From: a virus
Length of the DNA: 64,000 nucleotides
IMG/VR virus record: IMGVR_UViG_3300002131_000090
Coordinates: 32,001-96,000 of that record
Direction: 5' to 3' (one strand)
Shown here: positions 2,974-51,803 of the stretch, in pieces
Layout of the letters: every line of letters begins with the position of its first letter
How positions within the stretch are numbered: the stretch's first letter is position 1
Made by a program: the position numbers and the translations under genes
The notes under the pieces: generated by a model
The model's database searches: none
What the model was told of the DNA's origin: nothing
What the model saw: only the letters and a program-made list of their open reading frames with translations

Positions 2974-4068
2974 ATGAACTATATTTTTACTAGTGAAAGT
3001 GTTAGCGACGGACACCCAGATAAGATCGCAGACCAAATCTCAGATGCACTCGTTGATGCAGGGTTAAAGGCAGGTGATACTACTACTCGTGTTGCGGTCG
3101 AAACACTTGTAACTACTAACCATGTTACGTTGGCAGGCGAAGTAAAAAACTTTAATGTGAGCAAGGACGAAGTAAAAGAAATTGTACGCAATAAAGTTAA
3201 AGAGATCGGTTATGAACAGGATGGGTTTCATTGGGATAAACTAAACATCTACAATGAAATCCATTCACAAAGTGCTGACATTGCGCTGGGCACTGATGAC
3301 TTTGGTGCTGGAGATCAAGGCATTATGTTTGGATACGCTTGTAATCATACACCCAGTATGATGCCAGCACCTATTCATTATAGTCATGCGATTCTTAAAG
3401 AACTTAAAGCGTCACGTCTACCAGGCAGTGTACTTGGGCCAGATGCTAAGTCTCAAGTAAGTGTTGAGTATAATGGTGCTAGACGCGAAGGTATTGTTAA
3501 CCGTATCGATCAGATTGTTATTAGTACGCAACACACCGAAGGCGATGTAGAAGTAGCAAGAGATTTAGCTCGATCAGTAGCAACAAGTGTATTAGGAGAT
3601 TTAATTGATGACGAAACTGTATGGCACCTTAACCCAACTGGTAACTTTGTTATTGGCGGGCCTGACGGGGATGCGGGCGTTACTGGAAGAAAAATTATTG
3701 TGGATACATACGGCGGTTTTGCCCCTCATGGTGGTGGTGCTTTTAGCGGTAAGGATCCTACAAAAGTAGATCGCAGTGCAGCATACATGGCACGTTGGAT
3801 TGCTAAGAACGTTGTAGCAGATGAAATGGCAGACTGGTGTAACATTCAGTTAAGCTATGCTATTGGTGTTAAACAGCCTACTAGTATTCTTGTTGATAGT
3901 AATGGACACAACCGTAGTATTGAGCGTTTTATTCGTAAAGAGATTGATTTAAGTCCAAAAGGAATCATTGATCGCTTTGACTTGTTTAACTTCCACGAGT
4001 ACAGTAAGAATTGTGTGTATGGACACTTTGGTGACAAACTTGTACCGTGGGAAAGTATTGGATGGTAA
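2974..4068 (+). CDS. metK: S-adenosylmethionine synthetase
   Basis: FTSESVSDGHPDK, GAGDQG, GGGAFSGKDPTKVDRS signatures. Confidence 0.97.
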   Translation: MNYIFTSESVSDGHPDKIADQISDALVDAGLKAGDTTTRVAVETLVTTNHVTLAGEVKNFNVSKDEVKEIVRNKVKEIGYEQDGFHWDKLNIYNEIHSQSADIALGTDDFGAGDQGIMFGYACNHTPSMMPAPIHYSHAILKELKASRLPGSVLGPDAKSQVSVEYNGARREGIVNRIDQIVISTQHTEGDVEVARDLARSVATSVLGDLIDDETVWHLNPTGNFVIGGPDGDAGVTGRKIIVDTYGGFAPHGGGAFSGKDPTKVDRSAAYMARWIAKNVVADEMADWCNIQLSYAIGVKQPTSILVDSNGHNRSIERFIRKEIDLSPKGIIDRFDLFNFHEYSKNCVYGHFGDKLVPWESIGW

Positions 4069-4076
4069 TGAGTCTG
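4050..4076 (+). repeat. Direct repeat A copy 1 (metK 3' end plus next start)
   Basis: GGAAAGTATTGGATGGTAATGAGTCTG; 26/27 identical to 4687-4713. Confidence 0.9.
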
Positions 4077-4652
4077 CTGATATATCCCACAGGTTCAGGC
4101 GGTCACTTTCTAACTGCACTGTGTGATAATTTTAAAATACCACACACTGTTACTAAAGATAACGAATGGATTATTGATCAGGCATCGGCTTTGTCAGTAA
4201 GCCATTTGTACATTCAGTGTTTTCCATTATCTAAATTTAGACAATTTTTGGATAGTATAGATAATGTATTGGTTATGGATATTGGATCATACCAATATTA
4301 TGTGGAAGAATTAACTGACATTAAACGTGGCAAACATAGTCCCAGTAATTGGATTATGCCACCAGTAAACAGTCGTCGTATCAGCCGTCTTGTCAGCCGT
4401 GAGAACAGGAGGCATTATATTGCTTTCTATAACAGGTTGCAAAGGCTGGGTAAACGTGTTATACTTGTAAATTATAAGAACTTGATTATCAATCAACAGC
4501 ATAATGAAATACAGAAATTTTTTGATTTTGTACATCTAAATGTTGATGACTTTGGTGGGATTGATGCAGTAGCAAGTTTGATTAAGGCGTATCATGACAG
4601 TAACACCAATGTAATGAAAAACAACGGAGCAATAAATTGCTTAAAAAATTAA
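4068..4652 (+). CDS. Sulfotransferase-like / P-loop-fold protein (inserted cassette)
   Basis: Probable ATG at 4068 (TAATG overlap); N-terminal YPTGSGGHFL resembles a 5'-PSB loop; VNYKNL resembles the 'Y-E-D-L' motif. Confidence 0.5.
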   Translation: MSLLIYPTGSGGHFLTALCDNFKIPHTVTKDNEWIIDQASALSVSHLYIQCFPLSKFRQFLDSIDNVLVMDIGSYQYYVEELTDIKRGKHSPSNWIMPPVNSRRISRLVSRENRRHYIAFYNRLQRLGKRVILVNYKNLIINQQHNEIQKFFDFVHLNVDDFGGIDAVASLIKAYHDSNTNVMKNNGAINCLKN

Positions 4653-4686
4653 AAATTGTAACGGGTAACACCCAGTATACAATATA

Positions 4687-4713
4687 GGAAAGGATTGGAT
4701 GGTAATGAGTCTG
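4687..4713 (+). repeat. Direct repeat A copy 2 (orphan metK 3' end)
   Basis: GGAAAGGATTGGATGGTAATGAGTCTG; supplies the start of the 4705 gene. Confidence 0.9.
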
Positions 4714-5229
4714 ATTAGTTATTTTGAAAATAGTTGGAAACCCAATTACGATAAATTTAAATATAGTGGATGGGCCCTTTTAGATAAAGTGCCAGAAGAC
4801 GCTACTATCCTCGATGTAGGGTGCGGATACAATCTTTTTAAACCGCATTTTAAAGAACGTCTATACGGAATTGACCCAGCAAACGATGCAGCAGATGAAC
4901 GAGTCGGAATTGACGAATTTAACTCTAGTAATCAGTGGGATATAGTTTTTTGCTTAGGTAGTTTAAACTTTGGCAAAGAAGATACAGTTTATAAACAAGT
5001 AGAAAAAACTGTAGCACTTACTAAACTTGGTGGTAAAATCTTTTGGAGATGTAACCCAGGTACAGGAGATCACCCGTGGAAAGGTGTAGAACAAATACAA
5101 TTTTTTCCATGGACTGAAGATTTACATTATACATGGGCAGAAAAACTAGACTGTACAGTTATAGAATGCAAATGGGATACTGGAAATCGAATTTACGCCG
5201 AATGGCAAAAAAATAAAAAGGAAAATTAA
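4705..5229 (+). CDS. Class I SAM-dependent methyltransferase
   Basis: ILDVGCG motif I, GID motif II, WDIVFCLGSLNF. Confidence 0.8.
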   Translation: MSLISYFENSWKPNYDKFKYSGWALLDKVPEDATILDVGCGYNLFKPHFKERLYGIDPANDAADERVGIDEFNSSNQWDIVFCLGSLNFGKEDTVYKQVEKTVALTKLGGKIFWRCNPGTGDHPWKGVEQIQFFPWTEDLHYTWAEKLDCTVIECKWDTGNRIYAEWQKNKKEN

Positions 5230-5232
5230 AAA

Positions 5233-6699
5233 ATGGATATAACGACATTGTTTCCGCTGTTTGAACCCACAGTTGGAATAGGAGTTTTATTAGTATATGG
5301 ACTATTTGCATTTGCTATGACTTATTGGTATAGCAAAGGTTACAATTCTGATAAAACTAGTTTCTTAGTTGCAAGACGTGAACTAGGAACTTTTCAAGGT
5401 AGTTTAAGTGTTGCAGCAGCATGGCTCTGGGCACCTGGACTATTTATTAGTACACAACAAGCGTATGTAAACGGACTGGTTGGACTGTTTTGGTTTTGTT
5501 TAGGCAACTTCTTAACACTAGGTGCATTTGCATACTTTGCAAAACTAATAAGAGATAGAGAACCAAATGGGTTTACATTTAGCGGATACTTGCGCACTCG
5601 TATGAGTCCAAGAGTACAATGGCTATTTGTTGTAGAAATGTTGATCCTTGCAGTTTGTGCATTTGCTATTAACTTGATTGCAGGATCAACTACTGTAGCA
5701 ACACTAACTGGTATTAACTATTCGCTTGCAACAGTGCTCATGGCTTCTATTGCAATACTTTATAGTTTCCGTACTGGTCTTAAAGCAACTGTTATTACAG
5801 AAGTTATTAAGATTATAGTTGTATGGACTGGTGTTATTATTCTTGTTCCATGGGCTATTAGTGCAGGCGGCGGCTGGGAGACAGTTGTGGCAGGGCTTGG
5901 CGGTAAGTCAGGTCAGGGTGCAAGTATATTTGGAACACCGTTTTCATGGGGTGTGTTTACTGGCTTTGGCGCGGCAGCGTTCTTAGGACATATGGGCGGA
6001 CCGTGGGGTGATAACAGTTTTTATCAACGTGCATTTAGTATTAAATCTAAAAGCATTATCCCTAGCTACATAATTGCTAGTTTTGTATTCATTGTAATTC
6101 CAATTATGATGGGACTACTAGGGTTCCTAGCAGCAGGCGCCGGACTGGAAATTCCGAACAACATGGTAGGCAATACTAATGCCATTGTTATTGGAACATA
6201 CTTACCAGGTTATGCAGCAATACTATTTGCATTTATGATCTTTGCGGGTCTTGTAAGTATACTTGATAGTCAGTTTGCAAGTGTAGCAAACATGACAGGA
6301 CATGACATTTATAACCAATTCAAACAAGGCAATGACGAAAACGGTGCAGTAACATATGCTCGTTACGGCATGATTGTACTAGTAATTGCAGCACTAATTG
6401 TTGCTAATCTACCAGGAATGAGTATGGTATATTTGTTCTTATTCTTTGCTATACTAAGAGCTGCTGTTTGGCTACCTAGTATGATTGCGTTATTACGCCC
6501 AACTTGGGTTACAGAAGCAGGAATGTTCTGGGGTATACTAATAGCAGCTATTCCAGGAGAATCAATGTACATATATGCTAAACTATATGGCGGCGGGAAT
6601 GATATTGCGTTTGCAGGTACATTGCTTGCTATATTTGGTGCTCCTTTGTTTACTTTGATTTTAAGTAAAAAGGACAGAGGATCAATTGCAGAAGCCTAA
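5233..6699 (+). CDS. Sodium:solute symporter family transporter (DUR3/PutP-like)
   Basis: About 13 hydrophobic segments; FLVARR, SVAAAWLWA, GLKATVITE, DNSFYQRAF motifs. Confidence 0.85.
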   Translation: MDITTLFPLFEPTVGIGVLLVYGLFAFAMTYWYSKGYNSDKTSFLVARRELGTFQGSLSVAAAWLWAPGLFISTQQAYVNGLVGLFWFCLGNFLTLGAFAYFAKLIRDREPNGFTFSGYLRTRMSPRVQWLFVVEMLILAVCAFAINLIAGSTTVATLTGINYSLATVLMASIAILYSFRTGLKATVITEVIKIIVVWTGVIILVPWAISAGGGWETVVAGLGGKSGQGASIFGTPFSWGVFTGFGAAAFLGHMGGPWGDNSFYQRAFSIKSKSIIPSYIIASFVFIVIPIMMGLLGFLAAGAGLEIPNNMVGNTNAIVIGTYLPGYAAILFAFMIFAGLVSILDSQFASVANMTGHDIYNQFKQGNDENGAVTYARYGMIVLVIAALIVANLPGMSMVYLFLFFAILRAAVWLPSMIALLRPTWVTEAGMFWGILIAAIPGESMYIYAKLYGGGNDIAFAGTLLAIFGAPLFTLILSKKDRGSIAEA

Positions 6700-7285
6700 A
6701 TTACTAATAGTTACCGGGCCACAGGGGTCCGGTAACCACTTGTTTAGTAAAATACTAAGCAAGCACCCTTTAGTACAAGGGTGGAGGATGCAGTCTTATT
6801 GGGAAGGGCATCATACAGAACCATTTAATGACTATTGGCAAAACCCAAACAACCTTGCAAACTTTGATTGGACACACCAATACTATTTTACTAGTATTAG
6901 CTGTCCGTATGTTAGAGATAAAAAGTTGCAAACTCCTAAATATCAAGAGTTTATAGAGTGTGCAAGCAAATACGCCGATATTAAAGTTGCTATTATAGGC
7001 AGAGATAAAACCATCTTAAATGTGCAGCAAACAAGAGTACGAAAACAGCCTACTACATCTATTGCATTAGACGCTTTTGAATACTTATTTAGACTAGATC
7101 ATGTGTTTATTTCACAGGAATTATATCAATTGTATGGAAATGCCTATTTACAGTCCGTTAGCAAGCAATTAGATTTTCCTATAGCTTATCAGGCAATTAA
7201 AGAGGACGCAAATTCTAAGTATATAAATACCATAGATGAACAACCACTAGACTTAGAGGTATTTAAAGCATGCAAGGAATCTTGA
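6686..7285 (+). CDS. P-loop / sulfotransferase-like protein
   Basis: LLIVTGPQGSGNHLFS N-terminal loop. Confidence 0.55.
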   Translation: MQKPKLLIVTGPQGSGNHLFSKILSKHPLVQGWRMQSYWEGHHTEPFNDYWQNPNNLANFDWTHQYYFTSISCPYVRDKKLQTPKYQEFIECASKYADIKVAIIGRDKTILNVQQTRVRKQPTTSIALDAFEYLFRLDHVFISQELYQLYGNAYLQSVSKQLDFPIAYQAIKEDANSKYINTIDEQPLDLEVFKACKES

Positions 7286-7893
7286 ATAACTATATATTAG
7301 TTACTGGCGCCCCAGGTAGTAAATGGAGCAGCGTTGTTAAAAATATTTATTGGAGTAAAGACGTTGATCAGTCTGATTATTCTGAAGAACGAACCTATTG
7401 GCACGACGCTGATACTCCGGGTACACCTCAGCTAATGCATATAGGCGCATACTGGGACCCAGGAATGGAGTTTGCTATATACGACTGGGACAGCCCTTTT
7501 ACAGGTCATGGCACACGAATTATAAAATCACATACTTTTGCTCATCAATTAGAGCATTTTAAAGATCCAGGTTTTATACAAAAACCACAGTTATACCCGA
7601 TAGTTATGGTTTATAGAAATGATTATGAATGTTATGAGTGGTGGAAACTATGTGGAGAGTTTAACATTACTTATCCACTATATGATCTTTACTATAAAAA
7701 TTTAGATAATATGTGGTTAGAAATTCAAAAACAAAATAAAGATATTTTAACATTTTGTAAAAATAACAAAGATAGAATAACAAGAGTACTAGATAATTAC
7801 CATTTAGCAGATACTATAAACATTACTAGAGAAGGTATTAAAACTAGACATGACTATAAAGCAAAGGGTATAGAAGTATATGTATACAAGTAA
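7270..7893 (+). CDS. P-loop / sulfotransferase-like protein
   Basis: ILVTGAPGSKWS, IIKSH, MVYRN motifs. Confidence 0.55.
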   Translation: MQGILNNYILVTGAPGSKWSSVVKNIYWSKDVDQSDYSEERTYWHDADTPGTPQLMHIGAYWDPGMEFAIYDWDSPFTGHGTRIIKSHTFAHQLEHFKDPGFIQKPQLYPIVMVYRNDYECYEWWKLCGEFNITYPLYDLYYKNLDNMWLEIQKQNKDILTFCKNNKDRITRVLDNYHLADTINITREGIKTRHDYKAKGIEVYVYK

Positions 7894-8530: not shown

Positions 8531-8535
8531 AACTC

Positions 8536-8564
8536 TTGACAACTAATCAATATTGTATTATAAT
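8536..8564 (+). promoter_or_regulatory. Sigma70-type promoter
   Basis: Perfect TTGACA-17-TATAAT; AGGAG before GTG 8585. Confidence 0.85.
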
Positions 8565-8584
8565 AAAACAAATAGGAGATAGCT

Positions 8585-10677: not shown

Positions 10678-10696
10678 ATTATCTAATCCAAATTTG

Positions 10697-10703: not shown

Positions 10704-10735
10704 TATACGTAGTTAATTAAAGGACAACGTATACC

Positions 10736-28993: not shown

Positions 28994-29767
28994 TTACTTT
29001 AAATAATGAGTAATGCAAAGTCTGTTTACATATCCTCGTTTAAATTTATTATACTTCTTGTTATGATCTAATCCAAAAATTACTGTATCACTAGGAATTA
29101 TGCCTAATTCATTGCATATTTCTATTTGCTTTTGTCTATATTTTTTAAATGTATCATCTGGACCTAATGTATTAATCAGATCATAGTGTATTTTAGCACT
29201 GGATAATAGTTGATAATCCCATTCTTTGTACACTGAAACAGGGTATGTGTCTACAGTATAAATTTTACCTACACGATAATATCCAGTACCAAATGTTTTA
29301 CTTAAACTAAATGCAACAGTATGAATATTTTTATAAAGAGTAAAATCAAAATTGACGTTGGAGCAAATACCAAAGAATGCACAATCAACAAATATAGGTT
29401 TATTAAATGTATCAGCATACGCTAATTTTTCGTGAGCACTCATTCCATCAGCACTAAACGGATGGCTTACTATAATACAATCTGCTGCTTTAAGATTTTT
29501 TGTTAGTCGTTTTTTAGGTAATACTACTTCGTGATACGGATATTCGCCTTCAAAAATGCCTATTTTATTATAGATTGCATAAGTTTGATTAAAAGCATCT
29601 GTTATTCCCGAAACTATGTAGCTATCTTTTGGAAGTCCTTGTACTTTAAAATTAGACTTAAATATCCAATTATCAAAGTCTTGAGAAAAATTATGAAAAG
29701 ATTCCATATCATCTTTAAATTTAGCAATAGGTAATGCAGCTTTTGTTATTAGATCTAAATTATACAT
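28994..29767 (-). CDS. PLP-dependent enzyme (fold-type I, short)
   Basis: VDCAF (PLP Asp) and FSLSKTFG..YRVG (PLP Lys); paralogous to 37927-38856. Confidence 0.7.
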   Translation of the reverse strand: MYNLDLITKAALPIAKFKDDMESFHNFSQDFDNWIFKSNFKVQGLPKDSYIVSGITDAFNQTYAIYNKIGIFEGEYPYHEVVLPKKRLTKNLKAADCIIVSHPFSADGMSAHEKLAYADTFNKPIFVDCAFFGICSNVNFDFTLYKNIHTVAFSLSKTFGTGYYRVGKIYTVDTYPVSVYKEWDYQLLSSAKIHYDLINTLGPDDTFKKYRQKQIEICNELGIIPSDTVIFGLDHNKKYNKFKRGYVNRLCITHYLK

Positions 29768-30785
29768 AGCTATCTGGGCCTCCCTTACGTTTTAAATCTA
29801 GTGTTACACAATGTAACCCGCTATCCCAAAAATATTTATGTCTAAAATTAAACGGAATTCCTTCAATGCCATTTGCTTTAAGCTGCGCATATACGTCTGC
29901 ATCATATCCATTGGTAATAACTGTGTGTTCATCAAGACTGATAACATTAATATCAAATACAGTTTCGTCTACGTAACCAATCCAATGCTGTAACCATTCT
30001 TGTACTGTACTTTTATAAAAATGTTGGCTTTTTATTTTGTGAAAATACTCAGGTAATTCTTTTGTTTTAGCTTGAATGACGGTCCACTTTTTCATTGCCT
30101 TAGGAATATGTTTTTTGTTATAGCACATGACTACACCAGGTTTAAGTAATGCTAGTTTACCATCAGCATGTCCTACTGCTGGAATTTCAACCCAATGAAC
30201 ATCTCTATCAATGTTACGTTTAACCCAATCTAATCCAGCCTTTGTTCCTTTGCCCCAAGTTGTATCATCGTTGTATGGTCTTGTATGTAATAAAGTATCG
30301 CCTGCTTTAAGAACACATGCAGCATGGAACATTATTTGACCTTCCATTTTTTTATATTTTCGATAGTAGGAGTTTAGCAAGGGCTTAGGCATATTGATAT
30401 AGTTTCTTCCCTCTGCATATTTTTTAAGCATAATATCTAAGAAGTAATCGTGTTCTGTATAACGATTACAGTCGCCGCCGGCAGTGCCTAATATAGTATT
30501 GCCATAAACAATGTGAAAGTCACGTGGGCAAATAGCAGGATAAGGATAAGCTGACTGCCAGGTTCTGTGCTGTTCTGCTATTAGAGGAAAATCTCGAGGC
30601 CTATGCACTTTAACATCTGCACTTTTAAACAAATTAGATAATTTTTGGAAATCTTCTTCTGTTTCTTCTAATATTTTACCTAATCCATCAACAAATTCTT
30701 GATCGTCAAATTGTTTTAAAACATCTATATTATATGCTTTACCTACAATAACTTCTTCTAGTTTATCCCATTCTGTATAAATCAT
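29760..30785 (-). CDS. Amidinotransferase (glycine/inosamine-phosphate amidinotransferase family)
   Basis: TEWDKLEEVIVG, CPRD, GHADG, C-terminal GLHCVTLD. Confidence 0.85.
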   Translation of the reverse strand: MIYTEWDKLEEVIVGKAYNIDVLKQFDDQEFVDGLGKILEETEEDFQKLSNLFKSADVKVHRPRDFPLIAEQHRTWQSAYPYPAICPRDFHIVYGNTILGTAGGDCNRYTEHDYFLDIMLKKYAEGRNYINMPKPLLNSYYRKYKKMEGQIMFHAACVLKAGDTLLHTRPYNDDTTWGKGTKAGLDWVKRNIDRDVHWVEIPAVGHADGKLALLKPGVVMCYNKKHIPKAMKKWTVIQAKTKELPEYFHKIKSQHFYKSTVQEWLQHWIGYVDETVFDINVISLDEHTVITNGYDADVYAQLKANGIEGIPFNFRHKYFWDSGLHCVTLDLKRKGGPDSYV

Positions 30786-30871
30786 TTATGTTCCTATAAT
30801 TAAATTTATAATAATTGTTAGGCTAATTATTATAATAATTTGTATTTTTTTTAAATAAGTTTTATTGCAGG

Positions 30872-30922
30872 TTTACGTTTTGTTATTTTACTATCAAAAC
30901 TGCTTACACAACTTTTAGTAAT
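30872..30922 (-). pseudogene. Orphan 3'-end remnant of the radical SAM gene at 32352-33464 (repeat B copy 2)
   Basis: Reads ITKSCVSSFDSKITKRK versus ITDSCVSSADSKIPKRK at 32358-32408 (14/17 aa, 38/51 nt); runs on to a TAA at 30851. Confidence 0.85.
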
Positions 30923-30936: not shown

Positions 30937-32352
30937 TTATTCTAAATTTTTTGCTACATAGTTTTCTATAAACTGTTTTGTTTTATCTAACAATAATTCA
31001 TCCTTAAAATCTTTTTCGCGGAGTTCTAATAAATCTTTCATATTACAACGTAGTGTTGTACTAAATTCTCCCAGTTGAAATCCTGCAATTTTTCTATATT
31101 TGTAGGATCTATTATTATTATCTTTTGCTATCTTCATTAATTTAGTATGTACTAAGTCACCATTTGTCCAGTTAACAAAGTTATCATCAGTAAACTTGTA
31201 TCCGTATTTTTCATAGTTTTTTTCAAATTCACTTACCCATTGGTGTTTATTAATAACATTAATAGGATTTATATAAAGAGCCCAGTAATACCAACAACTC
31301 ATATCGTTGTCTATCATCCATTGTAAATCTATTTCTTCTTGTTCACCGGACCATCCCGGAAGTCCAACAATCATACCCATCCACCAGTTAGTTTTTCCTT
31401 TCCATCGGGTTTTTAACTCTAATAGAAATTCTTTAGCATACTGGCCGTTCCAACCTTTTCCTATTGCTTTTGAACCTTGTGCTTGAAAACTTTCAATACC
31501 AAAGAATGCGCTGCGTAAACCCGATTCGGGTAGTAAATCTATCATTTCTGGGTATGTTGCTAACAGATCAATTCTTATATAAGCAATGTACTCTAATTCA
31601 AAAGGTAACGATTTGCTAATACGATAAATCATTTGTACTTTATCCAAACTTTCATTAAGTGTATCATCACTAAAGTAATACTTTTTAATACCAAATCTTT
31701 CATAGTTTTGTATTAGTTCAGTTCTTATATCATTTTCACTTCGAATATTAGTTCCTTTTTTACGACCAGTTAACGGAAATTGACAAAACTTACATTTAAA
31801 AATACACCCTCTACTTATTTCAATACTTAGTGTTTCATAGGGTTGAATATAGTCGTCATTGCTATATACTTTTACAAAGTTTTGTATATCAAATTTTGGT
31901 CTTATTTCAATTTGCCTTGACAAACTATCAAGCATTGCTAATGTTTCGTCTTCGGCAAACTGATGTATACGTATCCAATCATTATCCATTATAGGAGACG
32001 TTGAATTTGATCCACCAAGAATCCATTTTATATTAGGATGAGTATTTCTAAAAACATCTCTTAAATGCTGTACCCACTTCGGATATACAATGCCGCCGAC
32101 TGTTACACTATTTAACTCAATTCCGGTTACTTCCCAAAAGGTAGTACTTACTCCAAAAGCAAGAGTGGTGTTATCGATATGTTTTTTAGCAATCTCTTCT
32201 ATTATATGAGGTTGTAGTTTAAAACAAAAGTCTATTACTTTTACAGTGTACCCAAACGTTCTTAGCCAAGAAGCAAGTTGATATTGGCCACCACTACGCA
32301 CAGCGTAATGCTCCGGTTCTTCCATTCCGGCAAAAATAATAAAATTTGTCAT
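30937..32352 (-). CDS. B12-binding-type radical SAM enzyme (inserted cassette)
   Basis: RSGGQYQLASWLR..GYTVKVIDF; IEISRGCIFKCKFC; DDT; GIES; IVGLPG. Confidence 0.88.
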   Translation of the reverse strand: MTNFIIFAGMEEPEHYAVRSGGQYQLASWLRTFGYTVKVIDFCFKLQPHIIEEIAKKHIDNTTLAFGVSTTFWEVTGIELNSVTVGGIVYPKWVQHLRDVFRNTHPNIKWILGGSNSTSPIMDNDWIRIHQFAEDETLAMLDSLSRQIEIRPKFDIQNFVKVYSNDDYIQPYETLSIEISRGCIFKCKFCQFPLTGRKKGTNIRSENDIRTELIQNYERFGIKKYYFSDDTLNESLDKVQMIYRISKSLPFELEYIAYIRIDLLATYPEMIDLLPESGLRSAFFGIESFQAQGSKAIGKGWNGQYAKEFLLELKTRWKGKTNWWMGMIVGLPGWSGEQEEIDLQWMIDNDMSCWYYWALYINPINVINKHQWVSEFEKNYEKYGYKFTDDNFVNWTNGDLVHTKLMKIAKDNNNRSYKYRKIAGFQLGEFSTTLRCNMKDLLELREKDFKDELLLDKTKQFIENYVAKNLE

Positions 32353-33464
32353 TAAACTTTCCTTTTAGGTATTTTACTGTCTGCACTACTTACACAGCTA
32401 TCAGTTATACAAGGCATTGGTTTGTTAAATAGCGTAAAGCCTGTTTCGATATTACCAAGTGGAACATCGTGACAACTATAACTACGCTTTACGCTGCCGT
32501 CGGGTTCGCGTATGATAATACCTTGATACCCAGCATTACAATGCCATCCTTTAAACTTGTTAAAGTTAAAAGCGTTAAATCGTTCTGCTTGATCCATATA
32601 GTATTTATTACCGTTAGAATCCGCCATTTCAATTTGCATATGCCACGGCACACTAGAATCGTTCTTTTCGTTAATTTCTGTAGGTACTTGAAAATTAGGT
32701 GTAGGACGCTCCGCCCACTTACGCTTGCTTTCTGTGTACGCACGTTGCGGCATACCGTTGTGTAAACGCTTTAGGTTGTCGTCGGTGTAGCCATCTACCA
32801 CTCGACTAGCTGTAGGGTCGCTTTGAGGCTTCAGCGTGACGTTTATACCTTGCTCGTGAAAGAACAATGCATTGTCCCAATCCTTCTCAAACCACTCTGG
32901 TACCATAACCATGTTGATAGTTACTTGTACATCATGCTCTTGACAGAAAATTAACTTGTCTGCAAAATCCTGCATCTTCTCTGGTGTGCTAAGATGTTCA
33001 GTGTGCAAACTTGCTGTAATACTTGCACGGTGAAATGGCGTTACTGCTTCTACGTACTGCTCAAACCACGCCATATTGCGTGAGCAGTTTGATGTCATAT
33101 GAACACTAGTGTAATTAGTATTACCAACATCATTAGCAAGATGTTTGAGAATGTCCAAGTAACCAGGGTGAAAAGTAGGCTCGCCTCCACTAAGACTAAA
33201 ATGAAAGCTATTAAAACCGTTGTCACGTGCCTGCCTTTTTATTTCGTCAATTGTTGTAAGACATAGCTCTGTTGGTCTATGGTCTTTTCGATCAGATCTA
33301 GCGTACGGCCAACAGTAACTACATTTATAGTTACAGAAACGGCCCAATAGCCAACTAACAGTAAAAAGATCGCGGTAAAGAAGAGTCCTTTGCCCGACAC
33401 TAACAATGTCGTCAAACGGGATTTTTGTAAAATCATAATTACTCCATTTTAAATCTTCAGTCAT
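32352..33464 (-). CDS. Radical SAM enzyme with a C-terminal SPASM/twitch-like domain
   Basis: CNYKCSYC, GGEP, C-terminal CNAG...C...C...C. Confidence 0.9.
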   Translation of the reverse strand: MTEDLKWSNYDFTKIPFDDIVSVGQRTLLYRDLFTVSWLLGRFCNYKCSYCWPYARSDRKDHRPTELCLTTIDEIKRQARDNGFNSFHFSLSGGEPTFHPGYLDILKHLANDVGNTNYTSVHMTSNCSRNMAWFEQYVEAVTPFHRASITASLHTEHLSTPEKMQDFADKLIFCQEHDVQVTINMVMVPEWFEKDWDNALFFHEQGINVTLKPQSDPTASRVVDGYTDDNLKRLHNGMPQRAYTESKRKWAERPTPNFQVPTEINEKNDSSVPWHMQIEMADSNGNKYYMDQAERFNAFNFNKFKGWHCNAGYQGIIIREPDGSVKRSYSCHDVPLGNIETGFTLFNKPMPCITDSCVSSADSKIPKRKV

Positions 33465-44915: not shown

Positions 44916-44988
44916 TTGTCGGCCTTCTATCTTTCTTTTCTTTAATTTTTTTCTCTTGTATGCTTGCTTTGTTGCAACTTTAAACAAC

Positions 44989-46308
44989 TTATAATCCATC
45001 GTACCAGTAATCGGACAATTCTGGAAAATAGTCAAATATATTGTTATTGTTTATTCTATCGCACATATTGAAAAAATTACAAACGTTTTTTGTAAGTTTA
45101 GGATTGTTGTAATCTGAATTTTTTAAAAAGTTATAACAATTAGTTGCATGATGAAGATAGTCTTCAACAAAATAACGGTCAGTTGAATAATCACCAACAT
45201 GTGCTATTGTCCATTCGATATCAGCTAATGCCTTTAATTTTAAGTCATCAGGTAAATGGATTGACGAAGTAGGATTTTTAAGTACTAAACTTGAATGAAA
45301 ACCAAGATCGTTCTCTATCCAGTCAAACATTATGTCTTTCCATCGCAAGGCAGAAAACATATTAAATGTTACAGTTCCAACTATATATCTTCTACTTTTA
45401 CCTTTAAAATAATGACTAAATTTTTTAATATTATCTGTTAGAAGTTCTATGTTACCTTCGGCTCTAAAATAATTATATGTCAAAAAAGATGTATCAATAC
45501 TTACACGTACTATTAATTTATTAAACTTATCCCAGTATTCAAAATATTTTTCGATGTTGTTAATGTTGAAATTTGAATTATAATCAAGATCTTGTTTATA
45601 TGAAGTTTTAGATGTATTAACTAGATAGTCTAGCCATTCTGTATGTTCAGGGGCTAATAATGGCTCGCCACCGGAAAATTGTATTAACTTAGTTGAACTT
45701 AAAAGTTCTTTTATATCTTCTTTATATTTAGATTTACTAGTCAAACCGTTTTTAAAATGATTATTAAAATTGTCAAACGGCACATCAGTGTCACCGTTTT
45801 CAATTCCTACTACATGATCGTATATGTCAAAGTTTTCTTTGACTGATAGTTTTTCAATCCACTTAGTAGACGAATCAGGCCCGCAGTGCATACATCTTAG
45901 ATTACATAATAGACTCGGTCTCATTTCAATACGCACAAAATTTTCAATTTTAGCAGTCAATGGATCTTGTTTAATTCTTGAAATTAATGTATCTTTTTCT
46001 TTTTCATCAAGTCTAAGATTATAATCTTTAAAAAAATCCATTCTTGGAGATATAGCGTTATGCGATTCAGCATACCAACAAGACTGGCAGTTTTTATGCT
46101 GTTTTCCTGTATACAATGCATCTCTTATTTCTTTTGCTTTGTCACTATTAAACACATCAATAAATCGTTCTTCTTTCCAGTTACCTATGTTTTGTTGACC
46201 GCGATAACATGTTCTAACATCGCCTACTTGATCAAGGTCGGTTCCAATATACGGAGCAAAACAAAAGGTTTCAGGATTTAATCCAAGTTTTTTTAATTGT
46301 TGTTTCAT
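44989..46308 (-). CDS. Radical SAM enzyme with an N-terminal twitch-like domain
   Basis: FCFAPY..TCY..CQSC; CNLRCMHC; GGEP. Confidence 0.9.
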   Translation of the reverse strand: MKQQLKKLGLNPETFCFAPYIGTDLDQVGDVRTCYRGQQNIGNWKEERFIDVFNSDKAKEIRDALYTGKQHKNCQSCWYAESHNAISPRMDFFKDYNLRLDEKEKDTLISRIKQDPLTAKIENFVRIEMRPSLLCNLRCMHCGPDSSTKWIEKLSVKENFDIYDHVVGIENGDTDVPFDNFNNHFKNGLTSKSKYKEDIKELLSSTKLIQFSGGEPLLAPEHTEWLDYLVNTSKTSYKQDLDYNSNFNINNIEKYFEYWDKFNKLIVRVSIDTSFLTYNYFRAEGNIELLTDNIKKFSHYFKGKSRRYIVGTVTFNMFSALRWKDIMFDWIENDLGFHSSLVLKNPTSSIHLPDDLKLKALADIEWTIAHVGDYSTDRYFVEDYLHHATNCYNFLKNSDYNNPKLTKNVCNFFNMCDRINNNNIFDYFPELSDYWYDGL

Positions 46309-46315
46309 TATTATG

Positions 46316-46322
46316 TATTTAT
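46316..46322 (-). promoter_or_regulatory. Possible late-type promoter (ATAAATA) 7 nt before ATG 46308
   Basis: Minus strand caATAAATAcataataATG; no SD. Confidence 0.4.
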
Positions 46323-46329
46323 TGACACT

Positions 46330-46365
46330 TTATATAAACTGCGCACTAAATGGATCAAACTCGGT
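46330..46365 (-). pseudogene. Orphan 3'-end remnant of the radical SAM gene at 48843-49910 (repeat C copy 2)
   Basis: Reads TEFDPFSAQFI* versus AEFDPFGEQFK* at 48843-48878 (27/36 nt; stop in register). Confidence 0.8.
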
Positions 46366-47086
46366 CCGAGTCTGACTTTCTGTAAATTACTTCAACCCAG
46401 TCAGTCCTTCCGTTTAGAGGATTTTTACTAATATGTGATATATCATATAGTTCAAAGTTATACGGTATAATAAGTTTTTCAAATTCTAAAAAACTAATAC
46501 GTGTTTCGTATAAATCGTATAAATTTAATTCGCTAACTATTATGTCAGTGTTATTTAAAATGGACGACGCACCTTCTAAAATTAAAAGTTCAGCGCCCTG
46601 TACATCCATTTTTAAAATATCGACCTTTGTAATATTTGAATCTTTTAAACAATTATCAAGCGTATCTACAGCAACCGTTTCAGTAGTATTATTAAAGAAA
46701 TTATGATGTCCTTCTTCGGGGCGATTGACTGCTATTGAATCAGTACTAAGTTTGTTAAGATTAAAAAAACTACTCAACATTATTTGATGATGATTAACAT
46801 TAAACTCACTAGTTCCTTGAAAATTTGATAATGCAATATTATATAATGTTACATCAGTATAGTGTTGTGTATTTTCTTTTAAATAATTAAACGACTGCAA
46901 TACAGGCTCAAAACTATGTATAATTGCCAAAGGCCATAGTGATTTAAAATAGTCAACACTTTGTCCTATATTTGCACCGGCATCAATAATAACAGGATTT
47001 TTAGTATGTACTAAACTTTTTAATAAATTACCTTTATTAAATTTTTCTTTAGAAATTTCACTACGAGTATGTTCCGGAGTATACAT
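46355..47086 (-). CDS. FkbM-family methyltransferase
   Basis: IIDAGANIGQ, HSFEP, ILKMDVQGAEL. Confidence 0.9.
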   Translation of the reverse strand: MYTPEHTRSEISKEKFNKGNLLKSLVHTKNPVIIDAGANIGQSVDYFKSLWPLAIIHSFEPVLQSFNYLKENTQHYTDVTLYNIALSNFQGTSEFNVNHHQIMLSSFFNLNKLSTDSIAVNRPEEGHHNFFNNTTETVAVDTLDNCLKDSNITKVDILKMDVQGAELLILEGASSILNNTDIIVSELNLYDLYETRISFLEFEKLIIPYNFELYDISHISKNPLNGRTDWVEVIYRKSDSDRV

Positions 47087-47607
47087 TAATAAAACTCCTT
47101 TTCTGAAAGCATCAACAACAGTGTACGTCTATTTTCTGTACATTCCAAACTATCAAAATCGTGCCACGTATGATCATTTCTAATAAATCCAGAGCCACGG
47201 TTTGGTAACCAATTGGTAGTTTTGACGTATGTAGTTGTGTCTTTTTCTTTAAATAATTGTGTGCCACTGCCTGTGTTAGATATAGCTAATACAAATGTCA
47301 TAACTTTTAATGGATTATCATTGTGTATTTTATTATATGCCCAGCCAGGCTTAATAACATCAAATTCTATAGCAGGATACAAATTTGTTATATCGTCAAT
47401 ACCTGCAATACTAGCAATTTTGTGTATATACGGAACTAATAGATTATACATTTCGGGGAAGTTATTTGAACGAACCTGTATGTTATTACGATCTCCAGTA
47501 ACTGATATATTTTTACTAAATTCATTAACCCGATCAAACGCATCAATATCTAATAAATTAGTAATTGTAAAATGCTTCCACGGATCATTGTAAAATTCTA
47601 TTTTCAT
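47086..47607 (-). CDS. 2OG-Fe(II) oxygenase-like protein
   Basis: IHND..K, GTQLF, TWHD, NRRTL; ATG 47607. Confidence 0.7.
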   Translation of the reverse strand: MKIEFYNDPWKHFTITNLLDIDAFDRVNEFSKNISVTGDRNNIQVRSNNFPEMYNLLVPYIHKIASIAGIDDITNLYPAIEFDVIKPGWAYNKIHNDNPLKVMTFVLAISNTGSGTQLFKEKDTTTYVKTTNWLPNRGSGFIRNDHTWHDFDSLECTENRRTLLLMLSEKEFY

Positions 47608-48149
47608 TATACTAGTACTTCCTTGTTTTTCCAATTTGAATTTACATAATTCACAATAACACTTGTTCTATCAGATGTTAATGGCGATAATGCATGTATT
47701 TCTGTGCCTGTATTATTAAAAAACCACCCACAGTTAACATGTGTATCAGTGTTAATATTATTAAAATTTGTACTAATATCACTATCACTTAAATAAATTT
47801 GTAATGTAAAAAGTTTAGCTGCATCATCTGTGTGTCCTTCTAGCCAACTTGCTTTGCTGTCTTTACACAATTCGATACGTGTTCTGCACGAACTATAATC
47901 AGTTCCTGTTATATTAGAAAATAACTGCTTTGTTTTGATACTATCAAAATAAGAAGAAAGTTCTTGATAACTACTGTTATTAATTTGATGTGTCCAAATT
48001 CGAGAAATTCTATCAGTTCTCTTACCTGACAATAATGCATACTCGTATTTTTCTGCACACGTAGTTAATTGTAACAGTTTCGCCTTATCAAAAAAATTAA
48101 CAAATTTAAAAATTTTAAATCCAACATCTGCTTCTGTATAATTAAACAT
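47607..48149 (-). CDS. 2OG-Fe(II) oxygenase-like protein
   Basis: GHTDDAAKLFTLQIYL, IHAL, DRTSVIVNY; ATG 48149. Confidence 0.7.
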   Translation of the reverse strand: MFNYTEADVGFKIFKFVNFFDKAKLLQLTTCAEKYEYALLSGKRTDRISRIWTHQINNSSYQELSSYFDSIKTKQLFSNITGTDYSSCRTRIELCKDSKASWLEGHTDDAAKLFTLQIYLSDSDISTNFNNINTDTHVNCGWFFNNTGTEIHALSPLTSDRTSVIVNYVNSNWKNKEVLV

Positions 48150-48846
48150 CAAACATCCATTTCGTTTTTCTTTTATATAATACGCAACTGTCATTAACAT
48201 ACACTGCTTTATTTTTTAATTCAAATTTAACTATAGGATCAAGTTCAAGAGGTAATGCCCACGAATTATTCTTAATGTTTATACACTCTTTATACACAAT
48301 TTCCTGTTCCGCAGCGTTTCTGATACTTCGAGGATGAGTAATTGCAGTACTTGATAGAAAATAAAGATCGTTGCAATTAAACTCTGCAGTTGATATATCA
48401 TTGAAAGATACATCATTAAAATCGGATATTACAGTGTTACTGTAATCAGTAATTATTACGTCTACCTTATCAGTATATTGCCCAAGAAAGGACAATCTAG
48501 TTTGTCCTGGGTGTAATGCAACTTTTTTATTCTTAAAGTAGTGAATATTTAAAGGATGCAGTAGTTTACATCCTTTTTTTAGATCATCTAATATTCGAAA
48601 AAATGAATATAATTTAACTATACTGTCAGTATCAATTGTAGCATTATTACTATAAACTAACGTACTATGTTTAAATACAGAATGTATATCACCAGCTATT
48701 TTCTTTTGAATATTTCTTTTTAAAAAAATATTATTAGTGTCTTCTAACGTTAATTTAGCAATATATGTATTTGTATTATGCATACTATCAAACTCGTTAG
48801 TTAGATTTACGAAATGCAAATAATCATTTAATTTAATTATGCTCAT
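48142..48846 (-). CDS. Hypothetical protein
   Basis: 234-aa ORF with ATGA coupling to the upstream radical SAM gene; HPGQTR motif. Confidence 0.65.
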   Translation of the reverse strand: MSIIKLNDYLHFVNLTNEFDSMHNTNTYIAKLTLEDTNNIFLKRNIQKKIAGDIHSVFKHSTLVYSNNATIDTDSIVKLYSFFRILDDLKKGCKLLHPLNIHYFKNKKVALHPGQTRLSFLGQYTDKVDVIITDYSNTVISDFNDVSFNDISTAEFNCNDLYFLSSTAITHPRSIRNAAEQEIVYKECINIKNNSWALPLELDPIVKFELKNKAVYVNDSCVLYKRKTKWMFDV

Positions 48847-49910
48847 TTAAATTGTTCCCCAAATGGATCAAATTCGGCGCCGCATTTCATTGAGCATACT
48901 TTTAATTTGCCAGAGGCACAACTTGGTTTACTCCAGCTATCTTGTATTCTATCAAATATACCAGTAGCAAATACTGACTCTAATCCGTTACGTGCATCTA
49001 ACACACTTTTATTAGGAATAAAATCCCATATCTGTTCTACTTTAGGATCTTTATGCCACCATTTATACATACGGCCCGCAGTCCAACAACACGGTAATGC
49101 CAGACCTTCTGCTGTAATAAACAAACTGTTGTCTTTTTTAACTTTACAAATAATAGGTGCAGCATCATAGTATGCATCCATACTTCCGTATTTGTTAATA
49201 ATAACGTCTTGTTTTTTAAGTGCAGCATTTTGATATTTTTCATCTGGCTTTTTAAGTTCTGTTGTTTCGTTGCCTTTACGATCAACTGCTTGATGCTTGT
49301 CTTTAGGCTCTACCTTTGATGTAACAAATCTACCAGTTTTTTTAGCAACAAATTTTTCAAATCCCCATTTACTAGCAAGTGCTTCTGCTTCTTCTACTTG
49401 ATGTTGATTGTGTTCAAATATTAAAAAGTCCCAACGTGCTCTGCCGCCTGCTTTAATAAACGCTTTTATGTTGCGCTCTACATTAGTCCAACTAACGCCT
49501 TGACGATATATATGATTGGTGTCTTTTAATCCGTCAACACTAAAAATAACTGCTCCATTGCTGCCGATAGTTTTAGCAAGTGCATGCCACCATATTGTGT
49601 TTTTAGCACCAGCATTAGTGTTCATGCTTAACCACATTTTAGGATTGTGATCTCTAAAATATGTAAAGATTTCTAAAGTATCTCGTGCAATAATAGGATC
49701 GCCTAAGTTTCCGCACATATACATAGTATCTAACTGTGAAATAAATTCTGGCAGGAATATCTTTTTACAATCTTCAATAGTAAGTTCATCTAAATTAATG
49801 TGCGGATTGACACCTTTACCGTTCATATTACGATCACACATAGGACAACTAGCTTGACAGTTTTGCGTAACTTCTAAGTGTATACTTCTAATATCTTCGT
49901 ACTTATACAT
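48843..49910 (-). CDS. Radical SAM enzyme with a C-terminal SPASM/twitch domain
   Basis: CQASCPMC, GNLGDP, C-terminal C..LPCC..CSMKC. Confidence 0.9.
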   Translation of the reverse strand: MYKYEDIRSIHLEVTQNCQASCPMCDRNMNGKGVNPHINLDELTIEDCKKIFLPEFISQLDTMYMCGNLGDPIIARDTLEIFTYFRDHNPKMWLSMNTNAGAKNTIWWHALAKTIGSNGAVIFSVDGLKDTNHIYRQGVSWTNVERNIKAFIKAGGRARWDFLIFEHNQHQVEEAEALASKWGFEKFVAKKTGRFVTSKVEPKDKHQAVDRKGNETTELKKPDEKYQNAALKKQDVIINKYGSMDAYYDAAPIICKVKKDNSLFITAEGLALPCCWTAGRMYKWWHKDPKVEQIWDFIPNKSVLDARNGLESVFATGIFDRIQDSWSKPSCASGKLKVCSMKCGAEFDPFGEQFK

Positions 49911-50172
49911 CCATTACCAACTTTATATCTTTGCCAGGGCCGCCAACACTTGGCAGGAAAAAGTATTCTGCCATATACCACTTGATTACTGCACGATACC
50001 ATTTTTGACTGTCGTGATGTGCTTGTTTATTAAACTGGTGTATATTATTATTAGTGGTCTGCATTGTAGCAAGTGCTCTTGCACTTTCAAGTTGCAATCT
50101 TCTAACTGAAAACTGATCTAACAATACTTCAATACTTTCGTCTCTAAGACGATCACTGTTATTTAAATCCAA
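49903..50172 (-). CDS. Small hypothetical protein (start uncertain)
   Basis: 89-aa ORF overlapping the radical SAM start; its TTG start lies inside the orphan remnant. Confidence 0.6.
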   Translation of the reverse strand: MDLNNSDRLRDESIEVLLDQFSVRRLQLESARALATMQTTNNNIHQFNKQAHHDSQKWYRAVIKWYMAEYFFLPSVGGPGKDIKLVMDV

Positions 50173-50263
50173 TTCTCATAAACCTTGTGTACTTTTCTAG
50201 TTCTAGACTTCCTTTATATAATACATTAGTTAGAGGAGTTTGTCTACTAAAATCTTCAAGATT
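50159..50263 (-). pseudogene. Orphan 3'-end remnant of gene 50958-51803 (repeat D copy 2; 35-aa mini-ORF from ATG 50266)
   Basis: NLEDFSRQTPLTNVLYKGSLELEKYTRFMRIGFK* versus DLNNFSRQTPLNNVLYEGSLELEKYTRFMRIGFK* at 50958-51062; 91/105 nt. Confidence 0.95.
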
Positions 50264-50961
50264 CATTTTAGTTTTATACGACCGTTATTATTATTTAAAT
50301 ACGGGTGTGACAATACAGTTAACATTTTTTCACCCCCTATCTGCCTAAGTCTGTTATAATTAATTAAAATGCTATCTTTTGGCTGAGATTTTTTTATATT
50401 ATTTTTTTTAAATGTCATTGATTGAGTATTAGATAATTTTAAATTCTTATAATCTTTATCATAGTCAAATTTTAAATCTTCGTAATAAACAATTTCATTT
50501 AACAATTTATTTTTGTGATTCCATTCAGCAAGATCTATAATACTTTGGTATCGACTTTCTAATGTAGATAAAAAATAAGTTTCATCTATAACAAATTTTT
50601 CTAAATAAGGAGTATCCGATGCTTGCCATAAATTAGTTTTTTCTGCAATTAGATTACTTATAGTTGATTCAACTAAATCTTGTCTTAATATAGATATTAT
50701 ATACCAATTGTTATTTAAAAACGCAGTTTTGTCAGCATCCGATAATCTTTTGTTGATGTTAGAAAAATGGTCTTTACACACGTTATTAGGAGTTCTTTTA
50801 ATTGTTTTAATAATACGTTTTATATATTTTTGAGAATAGCTTTCCATATGTTCGTAATTAAACGGCTCGGGGTATTTTTTAAATTTTATATTAGAATTTA
50901 CAAACATATTTAGTAAATATGTGCTACCTGTTCTAGACTGAGAAACAATTAAAATATTCAC
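50263..50961 (-). CDS. Sulfotransferase-like protein (Stf0-like, inserted cassette)
   Basis: SQSRTGSTYL PAPS loop, EPF, R..L....S, YYEDL. Confidence 0.75.
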   Translation of the reverse strand: MNILIVSQSRTGSTYLLNMFVNSNIKFKKYPEPFNYEHMESYSQKYIKRIIKTIKRTPNNVCKDHFSNINKRLSDADKTAFLNNNWYIISILRQDLVESTISNLIAEKTNLWQASDTPYLEKFVIDETYFLSTLESRYQSIIDLAEWNHKNKLLNEIVYYEDLKFDYDKDYKNLKLSNTQSMTFKKNNIKKSQPKDSILINYNRLRQIGGEKMLTVLSHPYLNNNNGRIKLK

Positions 50962-51803
50962 TTAAATCCGATCCTCATAAATCTTGTATACTTCTCTAGT
51001 TCTAGACTTCCTTCATATAATACATTATTTAGAGGAGTTTGTCTACTGAAATTGTTAAGATCTGCACTGCAATTTACGTGTTCGTTAACTTCAAAGTAGT
51101 TATTACTTTGCAATACTATTAGTACGTTATAAGGAAGTTTGTCATACCATTCTGCAAAATTTGGAATGTGTTCACAACTTGTATTAATAATAGTATTAGG
51201 CTTGTCTGTTATCGGATAACTCATTCTGTTGTTAGCATTACTCCAATATTGCCAAGTATGTTCATTATAGTCTATATCCATAATGTCTTGAGTTAATGAT
51301 TTAAAACGCCATTGATCAGTAAACCACGGAGCATTAAATACTTCTGCAATATTAACACAAGTAGGATCAATATCAAAACTTCTAATTTTATCTATTCTAA
51401 GATTTTTTTCAAATAACATTGTAGCAAGTGTAGCATACCATCCTGCACAAAGAAATACTGTTCCTAAATAAGGATTAATTCTTTTAAGTTCTTTAACTAG
51501 CCATAGTTTACTTTGTAGCTGTCCTCTACTAAAACAGTCATTCCATATTTCTGTTTTATTTACAAAAAAGTTTTTAAATGCTGCGGTAAATTGTGTATCA
51601 ACATAGCGATCTAACATAGGCCATAGTTTCCAAGTATTATCTTCCATAATCAATTTGCGAAGATCATCTTTATTTTCATCTGTAATTATTCTAAAGATAC
51701 TATGTAAATCGTGATCAATATATGCTCTACGCAAATCAGTTAACTTACTATTAGTTGGATATAATAACTCAAATCTATCCAATAGTTCAAATGTTTGAAG
51801 CAT
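50958..51803 (-). CDS. Putative SAM-dependent methyltransferase-fold protein
   Basis: QLQSKLW, LCAGWY, SFDID, IINTSCEH, LQSNNY. Confidence 0.6.
   Translation of the reverse strand: MLQTFELLDRFELLYPTNSKLTDLRRAYIDHDLHSIFRIITDENKDDLRKLIMEDNTWKLWPMLDRYVDTQFTAAFKNFFVNKTEIWNDCFSRGQLQSKLWLVKELKRINPYLGTVFLCAGWYATLATMLFEKNLRIDKIRSFDIDPTCVNIAEVFNAPWFTDQWRFKSLTQDIMDIDYNEHTWQYWSNANNRMSYPITDKPNTIINTSCEHIPNFAEWYDKLPYNVLIVLQSNNYFEVNEHVNCSADLNNFSRQTPLNNVLYEGSLELEKYTRFMRIGFK

Follow-up and report, generated by a model that had tools for sequence, protein, structure and literature searches.

Duplicated gene ends behind enzyme cassettes in a large marine phage as likely scars of gene gain by recombination

How new genes enter the variable islands of large marine phages, with their cassettes of radical S-adenosyl methionine (SAM) and tailoring enzymes, is rarely seen directly. 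In the variable islands of pelagimyophages, radical SAM genes have been described as accumulating gradually, cassette by cassette, with no mechanism given (PMC7029224). The question is raised in concrete form by a stretch of 64,000 nucleotides (nt), here called the window, comprising bases 32001-96000 of the 146,632-bp IMG/VR viral contig IMGVR_UViG_3300002131_000090 (34% G+C; an incomplete genome, with a CheckV estimate of 41% completeness). At four sites in this window, one gene is followed by a cassette of one or more others and then by a short orphan copy of its own 3′ end. The leading genes are termed anchors (metK at site 1, then a2, a3, and a4), the cassette genes are c1, c2, c3a-c3d, and c4, and the genes downstream are d1-d4; all positions are those of the window. 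The four sites are likely to be scars of gene gain, left by recombination between related phages that share the anchor and differ in the genes after it. Alleles from before and after such events could be recovered from ocean metagenomes at more than 99% identity, making the junctions legible to the base.

When the complete contig was scanned without gaps on both strands, the in-place copy and the orphan match at 26/27 positions at site 1 (next best match 18), at 38/51 at site 2 (next best 30), at 27/36 at site 3 (next best 23), and at 91/105 at site 4 (next best 52), each orphan being the sole top match to its own anchor 3′ end. All four pairs of the original prediction, made from the sequence letters, are thus confirmed where it placed them, as are the stop/start overlaps by which each cassette begins: TAATG (metK/c1, 4066-4070), TAATG (a2/c2), ATGA (a3/c3a), and GTGA (a4/c4). 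Two of the predicted repeat lengths had to be trimmed, orphan 4 being 104 nt (50262-50159) and orphan 3 being 35 nt (46364-46330), and the lone mismatch of pair 1, although the repeat itself is real, is a single-nucleotide polymorphism (SNP) within the population. Blastn-short missed pairs 2 and 3, whose detection needed ungapped and protein-level scans. At the protein level, among the 158 gene ends of the contig, the orphans of a4, a2, and a3 score 101, 64, and 43, where the null is about 26 ± 3, and the remaining matches are ordinary paralogue C termini only. No paralogy was found between the cassette genes and the downstream genes; as these are unrelated, the sites are not tandem gene duplications.

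The coding character of the repeats bears on their origin. Orphans 2-4 align in the reading frame of their anchors, and between in-place copy and orphan the ratio of nonsynonymous to synonymous change (dN/dS, Nei-Gojobori) is 0.17 for a4, 0.06 for a2, and 0.16 for a3. Synonymous changes make up 17/34 of the pooled differences, compared with about 19% expected without selection (binomial p = 5e-5). Differences of this mostly synonymous kind indicate that the copies diverged as working gene ends; the equality of dN and dS that simple decay would have produced did not occur, dN being far below dS. Nor is each remnant closest to the copy in its own genome, as orphans 2 and 3 are nearer to alleles of other phages. 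These results, together with the identity of orphans 3 and 4 to full-length alleles elsewhere, bear out the proposal that the two copies are functional alleles of different lineages.

At site 4, on the minus strand, the anchor a4 (50958..51803) has a predicted class I SAM-methyltransferase fold. It is followed by c4 (50263..50961), a candidate Stf0-like sulfotransferase by Atlas feature match to sulfotransferase clusters, whose GTG start overlaps the a4 stop, then by orphan 4 (50159..50262) and d4 (89 aa, 49903..50172), which starts inside the orphan. A single one of 120 a4 homologues (P0153, 306 aa) has a C terminus matching orphan 4, in 33/34 residues, and was found on five ENA contigs from five samples (L346-L350), from which c4 is absent. 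On L346 the last 104 nt of a4 equal orphan 4 (104/104) and a4 runs directly into d4; beyond a4, the tract of d4 and a3-c3a-c3b-c3c-c3d-d3 matches the window at 99.94% identity, with 3 of 5104 nt mismatched. L347 and L348 match the window's orphan 4 and d4 start at 100% over 141 nt. Comparison of a filled contig (L300) with an empty one (L347) gives 99.5% identity across 5.9 kb; in a4 they do not differ at gene positions 294-779, and the last 142 nt contain 22 differences. Because 9 of these 22 lie upstream of the 105-nt repeat, the empty form is not the product of a deletion between the repeats. Within the gene family, codons 1-210 of the window's a4 are typical and the last 70 are an outlier (rank 1-2 of 49 relatives), and at 9 of the 14 positions at which pair 4 differs most relatives have the orphan's state. 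The filled site 4 is a foreign block, consisting of at least 142 nt of an a4 end (50958-51099) plus c4, whose right end abuts resident position -104.

The relatives also show what the resident arrangement looks like. Their core order in IMG/VR is up4-a4-d4-a3-...-dd3 (up4 lying upstream of a4 and dd3 after d3), and in most of them a4 is directly followed by d4, the TTG start of which lies within the a4 end (..AGG TTT ATG nnA ATT GGA..). AGG and TTGG are present in 47/47 distinct a4 alleles that precede d4, whereas 15/24 alleles that do not precede it have AGA. Orphan 4 retains both the Shine-Dalgarno-like AGG codon and the TTG start of d4; in the in-place copy the corresponding positions read AGA, ATC, and AAG-TGA, the last being the source of the GTG start of c4.

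Site 3, also on the minus strand, carries a longer cargo. The radical SAM anchor a3 (48843..49910) is followed by four genes (46355..48846), c3a (48142-48846), c3b (47607-48200), c3c (47086-47634), and c3d (46355-47086; an FkbM-type methyltransferase by its Pfam Methyltransf_21 domain), by orphan 3 (46330..46364), which reads ..EFDPFSAQFI-stop, and by d3 (44989..46308), a radical SAM/SPASM enzyme by Pfam. The c3d stop lies inside orphan 3 in another frame, with an 11-nt overlap. One contig (L341) has a d3 homologue (78% aa identity) preceded by the last 61 codons of a3, the same 21-nt spacer, and the d3 start. Its a3 agrees with that of the window at 96/97 positions until 89 nt before the stop and at 67/89 thereafter, its last 35 nt equal orphan 3 (35/35, including the unusual ending SAQFI-stop), and its a3 end, spacer, and d3 start differ from the window's orphan region by 2 mismatches in 100 nt. 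This contig came from a protein search; a pattern search for d3 in IMG/VR gave no match. In two more distant phages (L336 and L338) a full-length a3 is directly followed by a d3 homologue and cassette 3 is absent. The filled site 3 is likewise a foreign block, of at least 89 nt of an a3 end (48843-48931, a replacement allele) plus the cassette, with its right joint 35 nt before the resident stop. Orphan 3, the last 35 nt of the resident allele, falls in a minority natural allele class and is nearer to foreign alleles than to the in-place copy. A search between d3 and the next gene found no further a3 remnant.

The direction of change follows from these alleles. A truncated remnant that is the end of a full-length allele cannot be the ancestor of that allele, so the polarity is insertion, and since the empty alleles are unlike the in-place copy upstream of the repeat too, they did not arise from filled ones by deletion. 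At the left junction, filled and empty alleles are almost the same until 142 nt (a4) or 89 nt (a3) before the stop, and their differences begin only there. At the right junction, the joints have no more than 1-4 nt in common, the c4 stop abutting position -104 and c3d entering its orphan by 11 nt. The claim that exchange was homologous inside the anchor and the joint short of the resident stop can therefore be read directly at sites 3 and 4. One homologous and one illegitimate junction are what homology-facilitated illegitimate recombination, the first of two routes that had been put forward, would leave; the second, single-crossover integration of a circle, is excluded at these two sites, the resident stretch between crossover and orphan being gone. 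Of the empty sites expected in relatives, those of sites 3 and 4 were found and those of sites 1 and 2 were not. Filled and empty alleles occur side by side in some samples (ERZ1283843; ERZ27235030, ERZ27235038, and ERZ27235039; ERZ1283876 and ERZ1283880).

The process suggested by these junctions would begin with donor DNA, carrying an anchor 3′ end and one to four enzyme genes, that replaces part of the resident anchor. The left exchange would be homologous, within the anchor, and the right joint would form illegitimately 18-104 nt upstream of the resident stop; an equivalent description would be an unequal crossover of co-infecting genomes, trimmed by nearby homologous exchange. The anchor would then end with a complete working C terminus, that of the imported allele, the new genes would keep a donor-like translational coupling to it, and the resident last codons would persist downstream as the orphan. 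Selection would favor joints that spare downstream start signals, which at orphan 4 are the d4 TTG and AGG and at orphan 1 the d1 ribosome-binding region and ATG. The setting of co-infection, the enzymes taking part, and selection on the start signals are what we infer from the junctions, and it is probably through selection for the spared signals that the orphans at sites 4 and 1 have survived. Orphans 2 and 3 lie away from the next start, so that such selection cannot account for their persistence, which may reflect no more than recent origin or neutrality.

A site-specific enzyme finds little place in this scheme. The offsets from cassette stop to orphan are +34, +14, -11, and 0 nt at sites 1-4, and this variability, with no sequence common to the joints, argues against one. 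Neither a tyrosine (PF00589) nor a serine (PF00239) recombinase gave a match in the 146.6-kb contig, itself an incomplete genome, with PF00589 controls positive. The earlier statement that no integrase or att site is visible in the window holds for the contig as a whole, in which no recombinase domain and no sequence shared by the four boundaries were found.

Several other explanations were weighed against these observations. The simplest is that the anchor's own 3′ end was duplicated locally when the cassette was inserted, by a long target-site duplication or unequal sister exchange, and then decayed in place. Pair 1, a perfect 27-nt direct repeat in four contigs, fits such an origin, and one relative (L120) carries a true tandem duplication of a gene plus the end of the gene upstream. 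Decay in place should, however, bring dN/dS to about 1, and the observed values are 0.06-0.17; in addition, full-length alleles in other strains contain the exact sequences of orphans 3 and 4, foreign alleles are closer to orphans 2 and 3 than the in-place copies are, and in-place and empty alleles differ upstream of the repeat as well. Local duplication is refuted for sites 3 and 4 and is extremely improbable as an account of the four sites. A Campbell-type event is very improbable: here a small circle of anchor fragment plus cassette, formed by recombination between flanking repeats, would enter by a single homologous crossover in the anchor 3′ end. Direct repeats flanking a cassette could allow its excision as a circle, T4-type phages form such mini-circles (PMC2839356), and the route could still apply to sites 1 and 2. 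Such integration keeps all resident sequence, yet resident positions -142 to -105 of a4 and -89 to -36 of a3 are missing, and at both sites all of the in-place copy is foreign and all of the orphan resident. There is next to no chance that the repeats are artefacts made by chimeric joins of co-occurring strains, as the original prediction had allowed. The source is a metagenome in which strains co-occur, and one scaffold (L295) does show a repeat around an N run, but the same gene order at 99.7-99.99% identity, with identical junctions, is present in all dozens of independent ENA/JGI contigs read, from different studies and assemblers, the Tara contig L290 showing this order too. Moreover, the cassette/orphan joints share no sequence that could mislead an assembler, and the longest exact match within pair 4 is about 20 nt, where contig names suggest k = 119-141. 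The extra 155 nt of scaffold L295 are a scaffold gap.

A more elaborate possibility is a dedicated, selected system of cassette capture, in which anchor 3′ ends serve as start-signal "landing pads" and orphan mini-open reading frames (mini-ORFs) as translational relays to the downstream gene. Orphan 4 with an ATG at 50266-50264 is an open 35-codon mini-ORF, its ATG overlapping the c4 stop and its end at the old a4 stop; this 35-aa ORF is listed by gene callers, and a relay role in translational coupling is a possible reading of its sequence. The orphans of L025 and L120 are likewise open, in-frame mini-ORFs with an ATG overlapping the preceding stop and an end at a coupling site, and in L257 and L025 both repeat copies provide the start of the next gene. 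Orphans are also about tenfold commoner here (3-4 in 0.147 Mb) than in relatives (2.48 Mb), a rough ratio because the relatives' loci were chosen around the anchors. Such a system is nevertheless distinctly unlikely, since neither the position of the joint nor the length of the orphan is constant, orphans 1-3 could not be translated as mini-ORFs, a linked enzyme is lacking, and most cassette differences among relatives, as well as a population indel at 7288-7888, come without an orphan. It is unlikely, too, that anchor 3′ ends containing the next gene's start signals are reusable docking points for a capture of cassettes that needs no recombinase, with the orphan retained as a relay ORF or start-signal module through which the displaced downstream gene would stay translationally coupled. 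If they were, the growth of the roughly 40-kb radical SAM tailoring island would be selected and semi-programmed, not an accident.

Gene gain by exchange between related phages also has evidence against it. No contig with an in-place-type anchor end and cassette but without the orphan, such as a donor should have, was found for any site; loci of the L107 and L141 types show only that anchor-then-cargo arrangements exist and are not close donors. Orphans 2 and 3, as noted, do not overlap the next gene start. At site 1, pair 1 is perfect (27/27) in L319, L320, L325, and L333, and the metK end is conserved across lineages; by sequence, pair 1 gives no allele information, and a local duplicative event is possible there. 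An empty metK-d1 site was not found among the metK relatives or in d1 look-ups. For site 2, no empty-site contig was found, an empty site being defined as a2 ending in ..SCVSSFDSKITKRKPAIKLI and a stop, an AT-rich spacer, and then d2, and an exact-pattern scan for orphan 2 in IMG/VR was without match. Exact protein look-ups of a3, d1, and a2 returned filled architectures only, and a sliding-window breakpoint search against relatives found no 3′-end outlier in a2 or a3 and a weak one in metK.

Site 1, on the plus strand, consists of metK (2974..4068), an S-adenosylmethionine synthetase with three MetK Pfam domains; c1 (194 aa, 4068..4652), with no Pfam or PHROG match and only a weak sulfotransferase-like Atlas lead; orphan 1 (4687..4713); and d1 (4705..5229), which public assemblies list at 174 aa and which comes after c1 in every contig read. 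The in-place repeat (4050..4076) takes in 16 nt from the end of the metK coding sequence, its stop, and 9 nt from the start of c1, with the one-base overlap of TAATG. Orphan 1 is preceded by an in-frame TAG and so is not an ORF; it holds a GGAAAGGA motif in the d1 ribosome-binding region and the d1 ATG, and its AGG codon agrees with the allele that is common among relatives. The metK 3′ end, GGAAAG(T/G)ATTGGATGGTAATG, is conserved in many relatives, where the genes after it are of many different kinds and never c1 or d1; none of the d1 relatives in IMG/VR adjoins metK.

Site 2, on the minus strand, consists of the radical SAM anchor a2 (32352..33464; Pfam Radical_SAM), a conserved core gene; c2 (30937..32352), a 471-aa radical SAM enzyme by Pfam; orphan 2 (30872..30922), a diverged a2 end whose frame continues to a stop at about 30851; and d2 (29760..30785), of the amidinotransferase family by the source names of its homologues. 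Across more than 590 IMG/VR loci a2 has 82-92% aa identity and a hypervariable region downstream of it. Homologues of c2 (74-75% identity) directly follow a2, without an orphan, in L141, L143, L146, and L147; in L286 a d2 homologue is found about 540 nt beyond a2, with c2 missing; and what precedes the nearest d2 homologues (73-75% aa identity) is not a2 but another gene, of 176 aa. Compared with a2 ends from other phages, orphan 2 agrees at as many as 40/45 positions (L172), the figure for its own in-place copy being 38/51, and it is only through this comparison of alleles that the sequences point to gene gain at site 2. No site resembling a terminator was found in the region scanned around orphan 2. 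Between this orphan and d2, the AT-rich spacer contains a 16-nt perfect palindrome (ATTATTATAATAAT-type, 30825-30840), which may be a promoter or operator for d2.

The scars resemble several known systems, each in part. Phages that integrate in icd or tRNA genes replace the 3′ end of their target through an integrase. There, as here, an element brings a substitute 3′ end with synonymous differences and the displaced original end lies beyond it; unlike those elements, the ones described here are 0.6-2.5 kb in size, have a phage genome as target, lack an att core, and occur in a contig without an integrase or resolvase, their proteins having enzyme domains only or no domain. Phage mosaicism of the Hendrix type, as in lambdoid phages and mycobacteriophages, is understood as random illegitimate recombination filtered by selection. 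Novel joints at or near gene boundaries, homologous exchange in shared flanks, and selection for intact genes are common to both; what differs is that filled and empty states are recovered here at more than 99% identity and that the joint lies inside a gene, leaving a measurable remnant. With integrons the likeness is in outcome alone, in that cassettes without promoters accumulate step by step behind a fixed point. There is no IntI, attI, attC, or common recombination site, and no sequence common to the four boundaries that might be an attC-type site emerged from self-comparison. The description "integron-like" in the original prediction is therefore apt for stepwise accretion and fails for mechanism, there being no recombinase, att-like repeat, or fixed joint position.

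Closer in setting are the T4-type phages, in which PeSL-mediated modular shuffling occurs in hyperplastic regions and for which an integron analogy has been drawn (PMC2839356, PMC4122927). Both involve gain and loss of small phage gene cassettes without a recombinase, and in both short conserved expression signals flank the cassettes. PeSLs, however, are intergenic promoter-plus-terminator motifs, many per genome, between which exchange is homologous, whereas the repeats here are anchor-specific gene ends, one junction is illegitimate, and two of the sites exclude the circle route; self-comparison of the contig found no recurrent intergenic repeat family or motif common to the sites, and cassettes 1-4, whose starts overlap the preceding stops, have no space for a promoter before them. 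Homology-facilitated illegitimate recombination has itself been proposed as the model for effector-immunity arrays of type VI secretion systems (T6SS) and for displacement of Rhs C termini (PMC5361080). In this Rhs, contact-dependent inhibition (CDI), and T6SS displacement, as at the present sites, a conserved anchor provides one homologous junction and the other is illegitimate, the new 3′ end and cargo push the old end downstream, and repeated events build arrays. The differences lie in the place, which is a bacterial chromosome there and a phage genome here, with presumed co-infection instead of DNA uptake; in the anchors, which are ordinary enzymes (MetK, radical SAM, methyltransferase-fold) whose imported end has the same function and is not a new toxin domain; and in the cargo, which consists of whole tailoring-enzyme genes followed by orphans of 18-104 nt, two of which contain the next gene's start signals. 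The process is thus known in kind, and the sites are a clean, base-resolved case of it in a phage biosynthetic island, not a new type of system. They show a phage variable island gaining genes through ordinary recombination only, and the presence of Rhs/T6SS-like logic in such an island suggests that genes may accrete by this route generally. As a search signature, a duplicated gene end behind a cassette might allow recent gene gains in viromes to be dated and counted, and overlapping start signals limit where a new gene can go in.

Orphans are rare in relatives, with about 4-5 in 2.48 Mb. One locus (L025:5920-9159, the same in L092) has a site-4-like architecture at a4 with another cargo, a 409-aa radical SAM cassette followed by a 46-codon mini-ORF that closes with 44 nt copying the a4 end at 95% identity; cassette and next gene both start at a TTG inside the repeat. 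In another (L257:1393-2860), a 53-nt repeat gives AAGGAGA and an ATGA start to cassette and next gene alike. A third (L239:5086-5300) has a metK-end orphan 213 nt downstream, and the tandem duplication mentioned above lies at L120:19-2427. In the near-clonal population of the window itself, a 601-nt presence/absence polymorphism (7288-7888) involves one gene (7270-7893, 207 aa), which L326 and L331 lack; neither an orphan nor a direct repeat was found at its joints, so not every cassette difference leaves a scar.

The anchor a4 has no Pfam or PHROG match. Its AlphaFold model (pLDDT 91) includes an N-terminal helical domain, and among the Foldseek matches listed nearly all are SAM-dependent methyltransferases or related SAM-using transferases, nicotianamine-synthase and CntL-like transferases being among them. 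The repeated segment corresponds to the last two strands of the model, and if the predicted fold is right an intact C terminus would be needed. Of the four cassettes, two are sulfotransferase-like (Stf0-type or other) by language-model features, c4 clearly and c1 weakly. Genes of the c4 family occur at three positions in three lineages. In L107 a4 is followed by a distant c4 homologue, and L107 and L110 hold distant c4 homologues at other positions. The a4 region is also a recombination hotspot in the population (51108-52387). A 1.2-kb patch, about 12% divergent (51159-52387), is found in L300 and the Tara contig L290; this divergent a4 body, considered as an insertion breakpoint, is a separate replacement just upstream of the foreign tract. 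An 8-SNP patch (51108-51144) is found in L291, L292, and L296, and L309 has a 12-nt deletion (51257-51268).

By its ATPase, the nearest cultured relatives of the phage are PA5oct-type jumbo phages, at 49% aa identity. GenBank phages gave no DNA match to the radical SAM region and no protein match to a2, and their matches to metK are to distant Streptococcus and Staphylococcus phages only. The phage is abundant, as the exact c4, a3, c2, c1, and d1 proteins are present in 75-167 blocks of public assemblies. Positions 1-21 kb of the window code for FolE, a QueE-like radical SAM enzyme, MetK, a solute symporter, and replication-type proteins; from about 22 kb a minus-strand array codes for radical SAM/SPASM enzymes together with an amidinotransferase, methyltransferases, and 2-oxoglutarate (2OG)-type oxygenases. 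At 55513-55545, one contig (L296) shows dense differences and small indels in a region that is otherwise 99.7% identical, and a 407-aa gene is called there as two.

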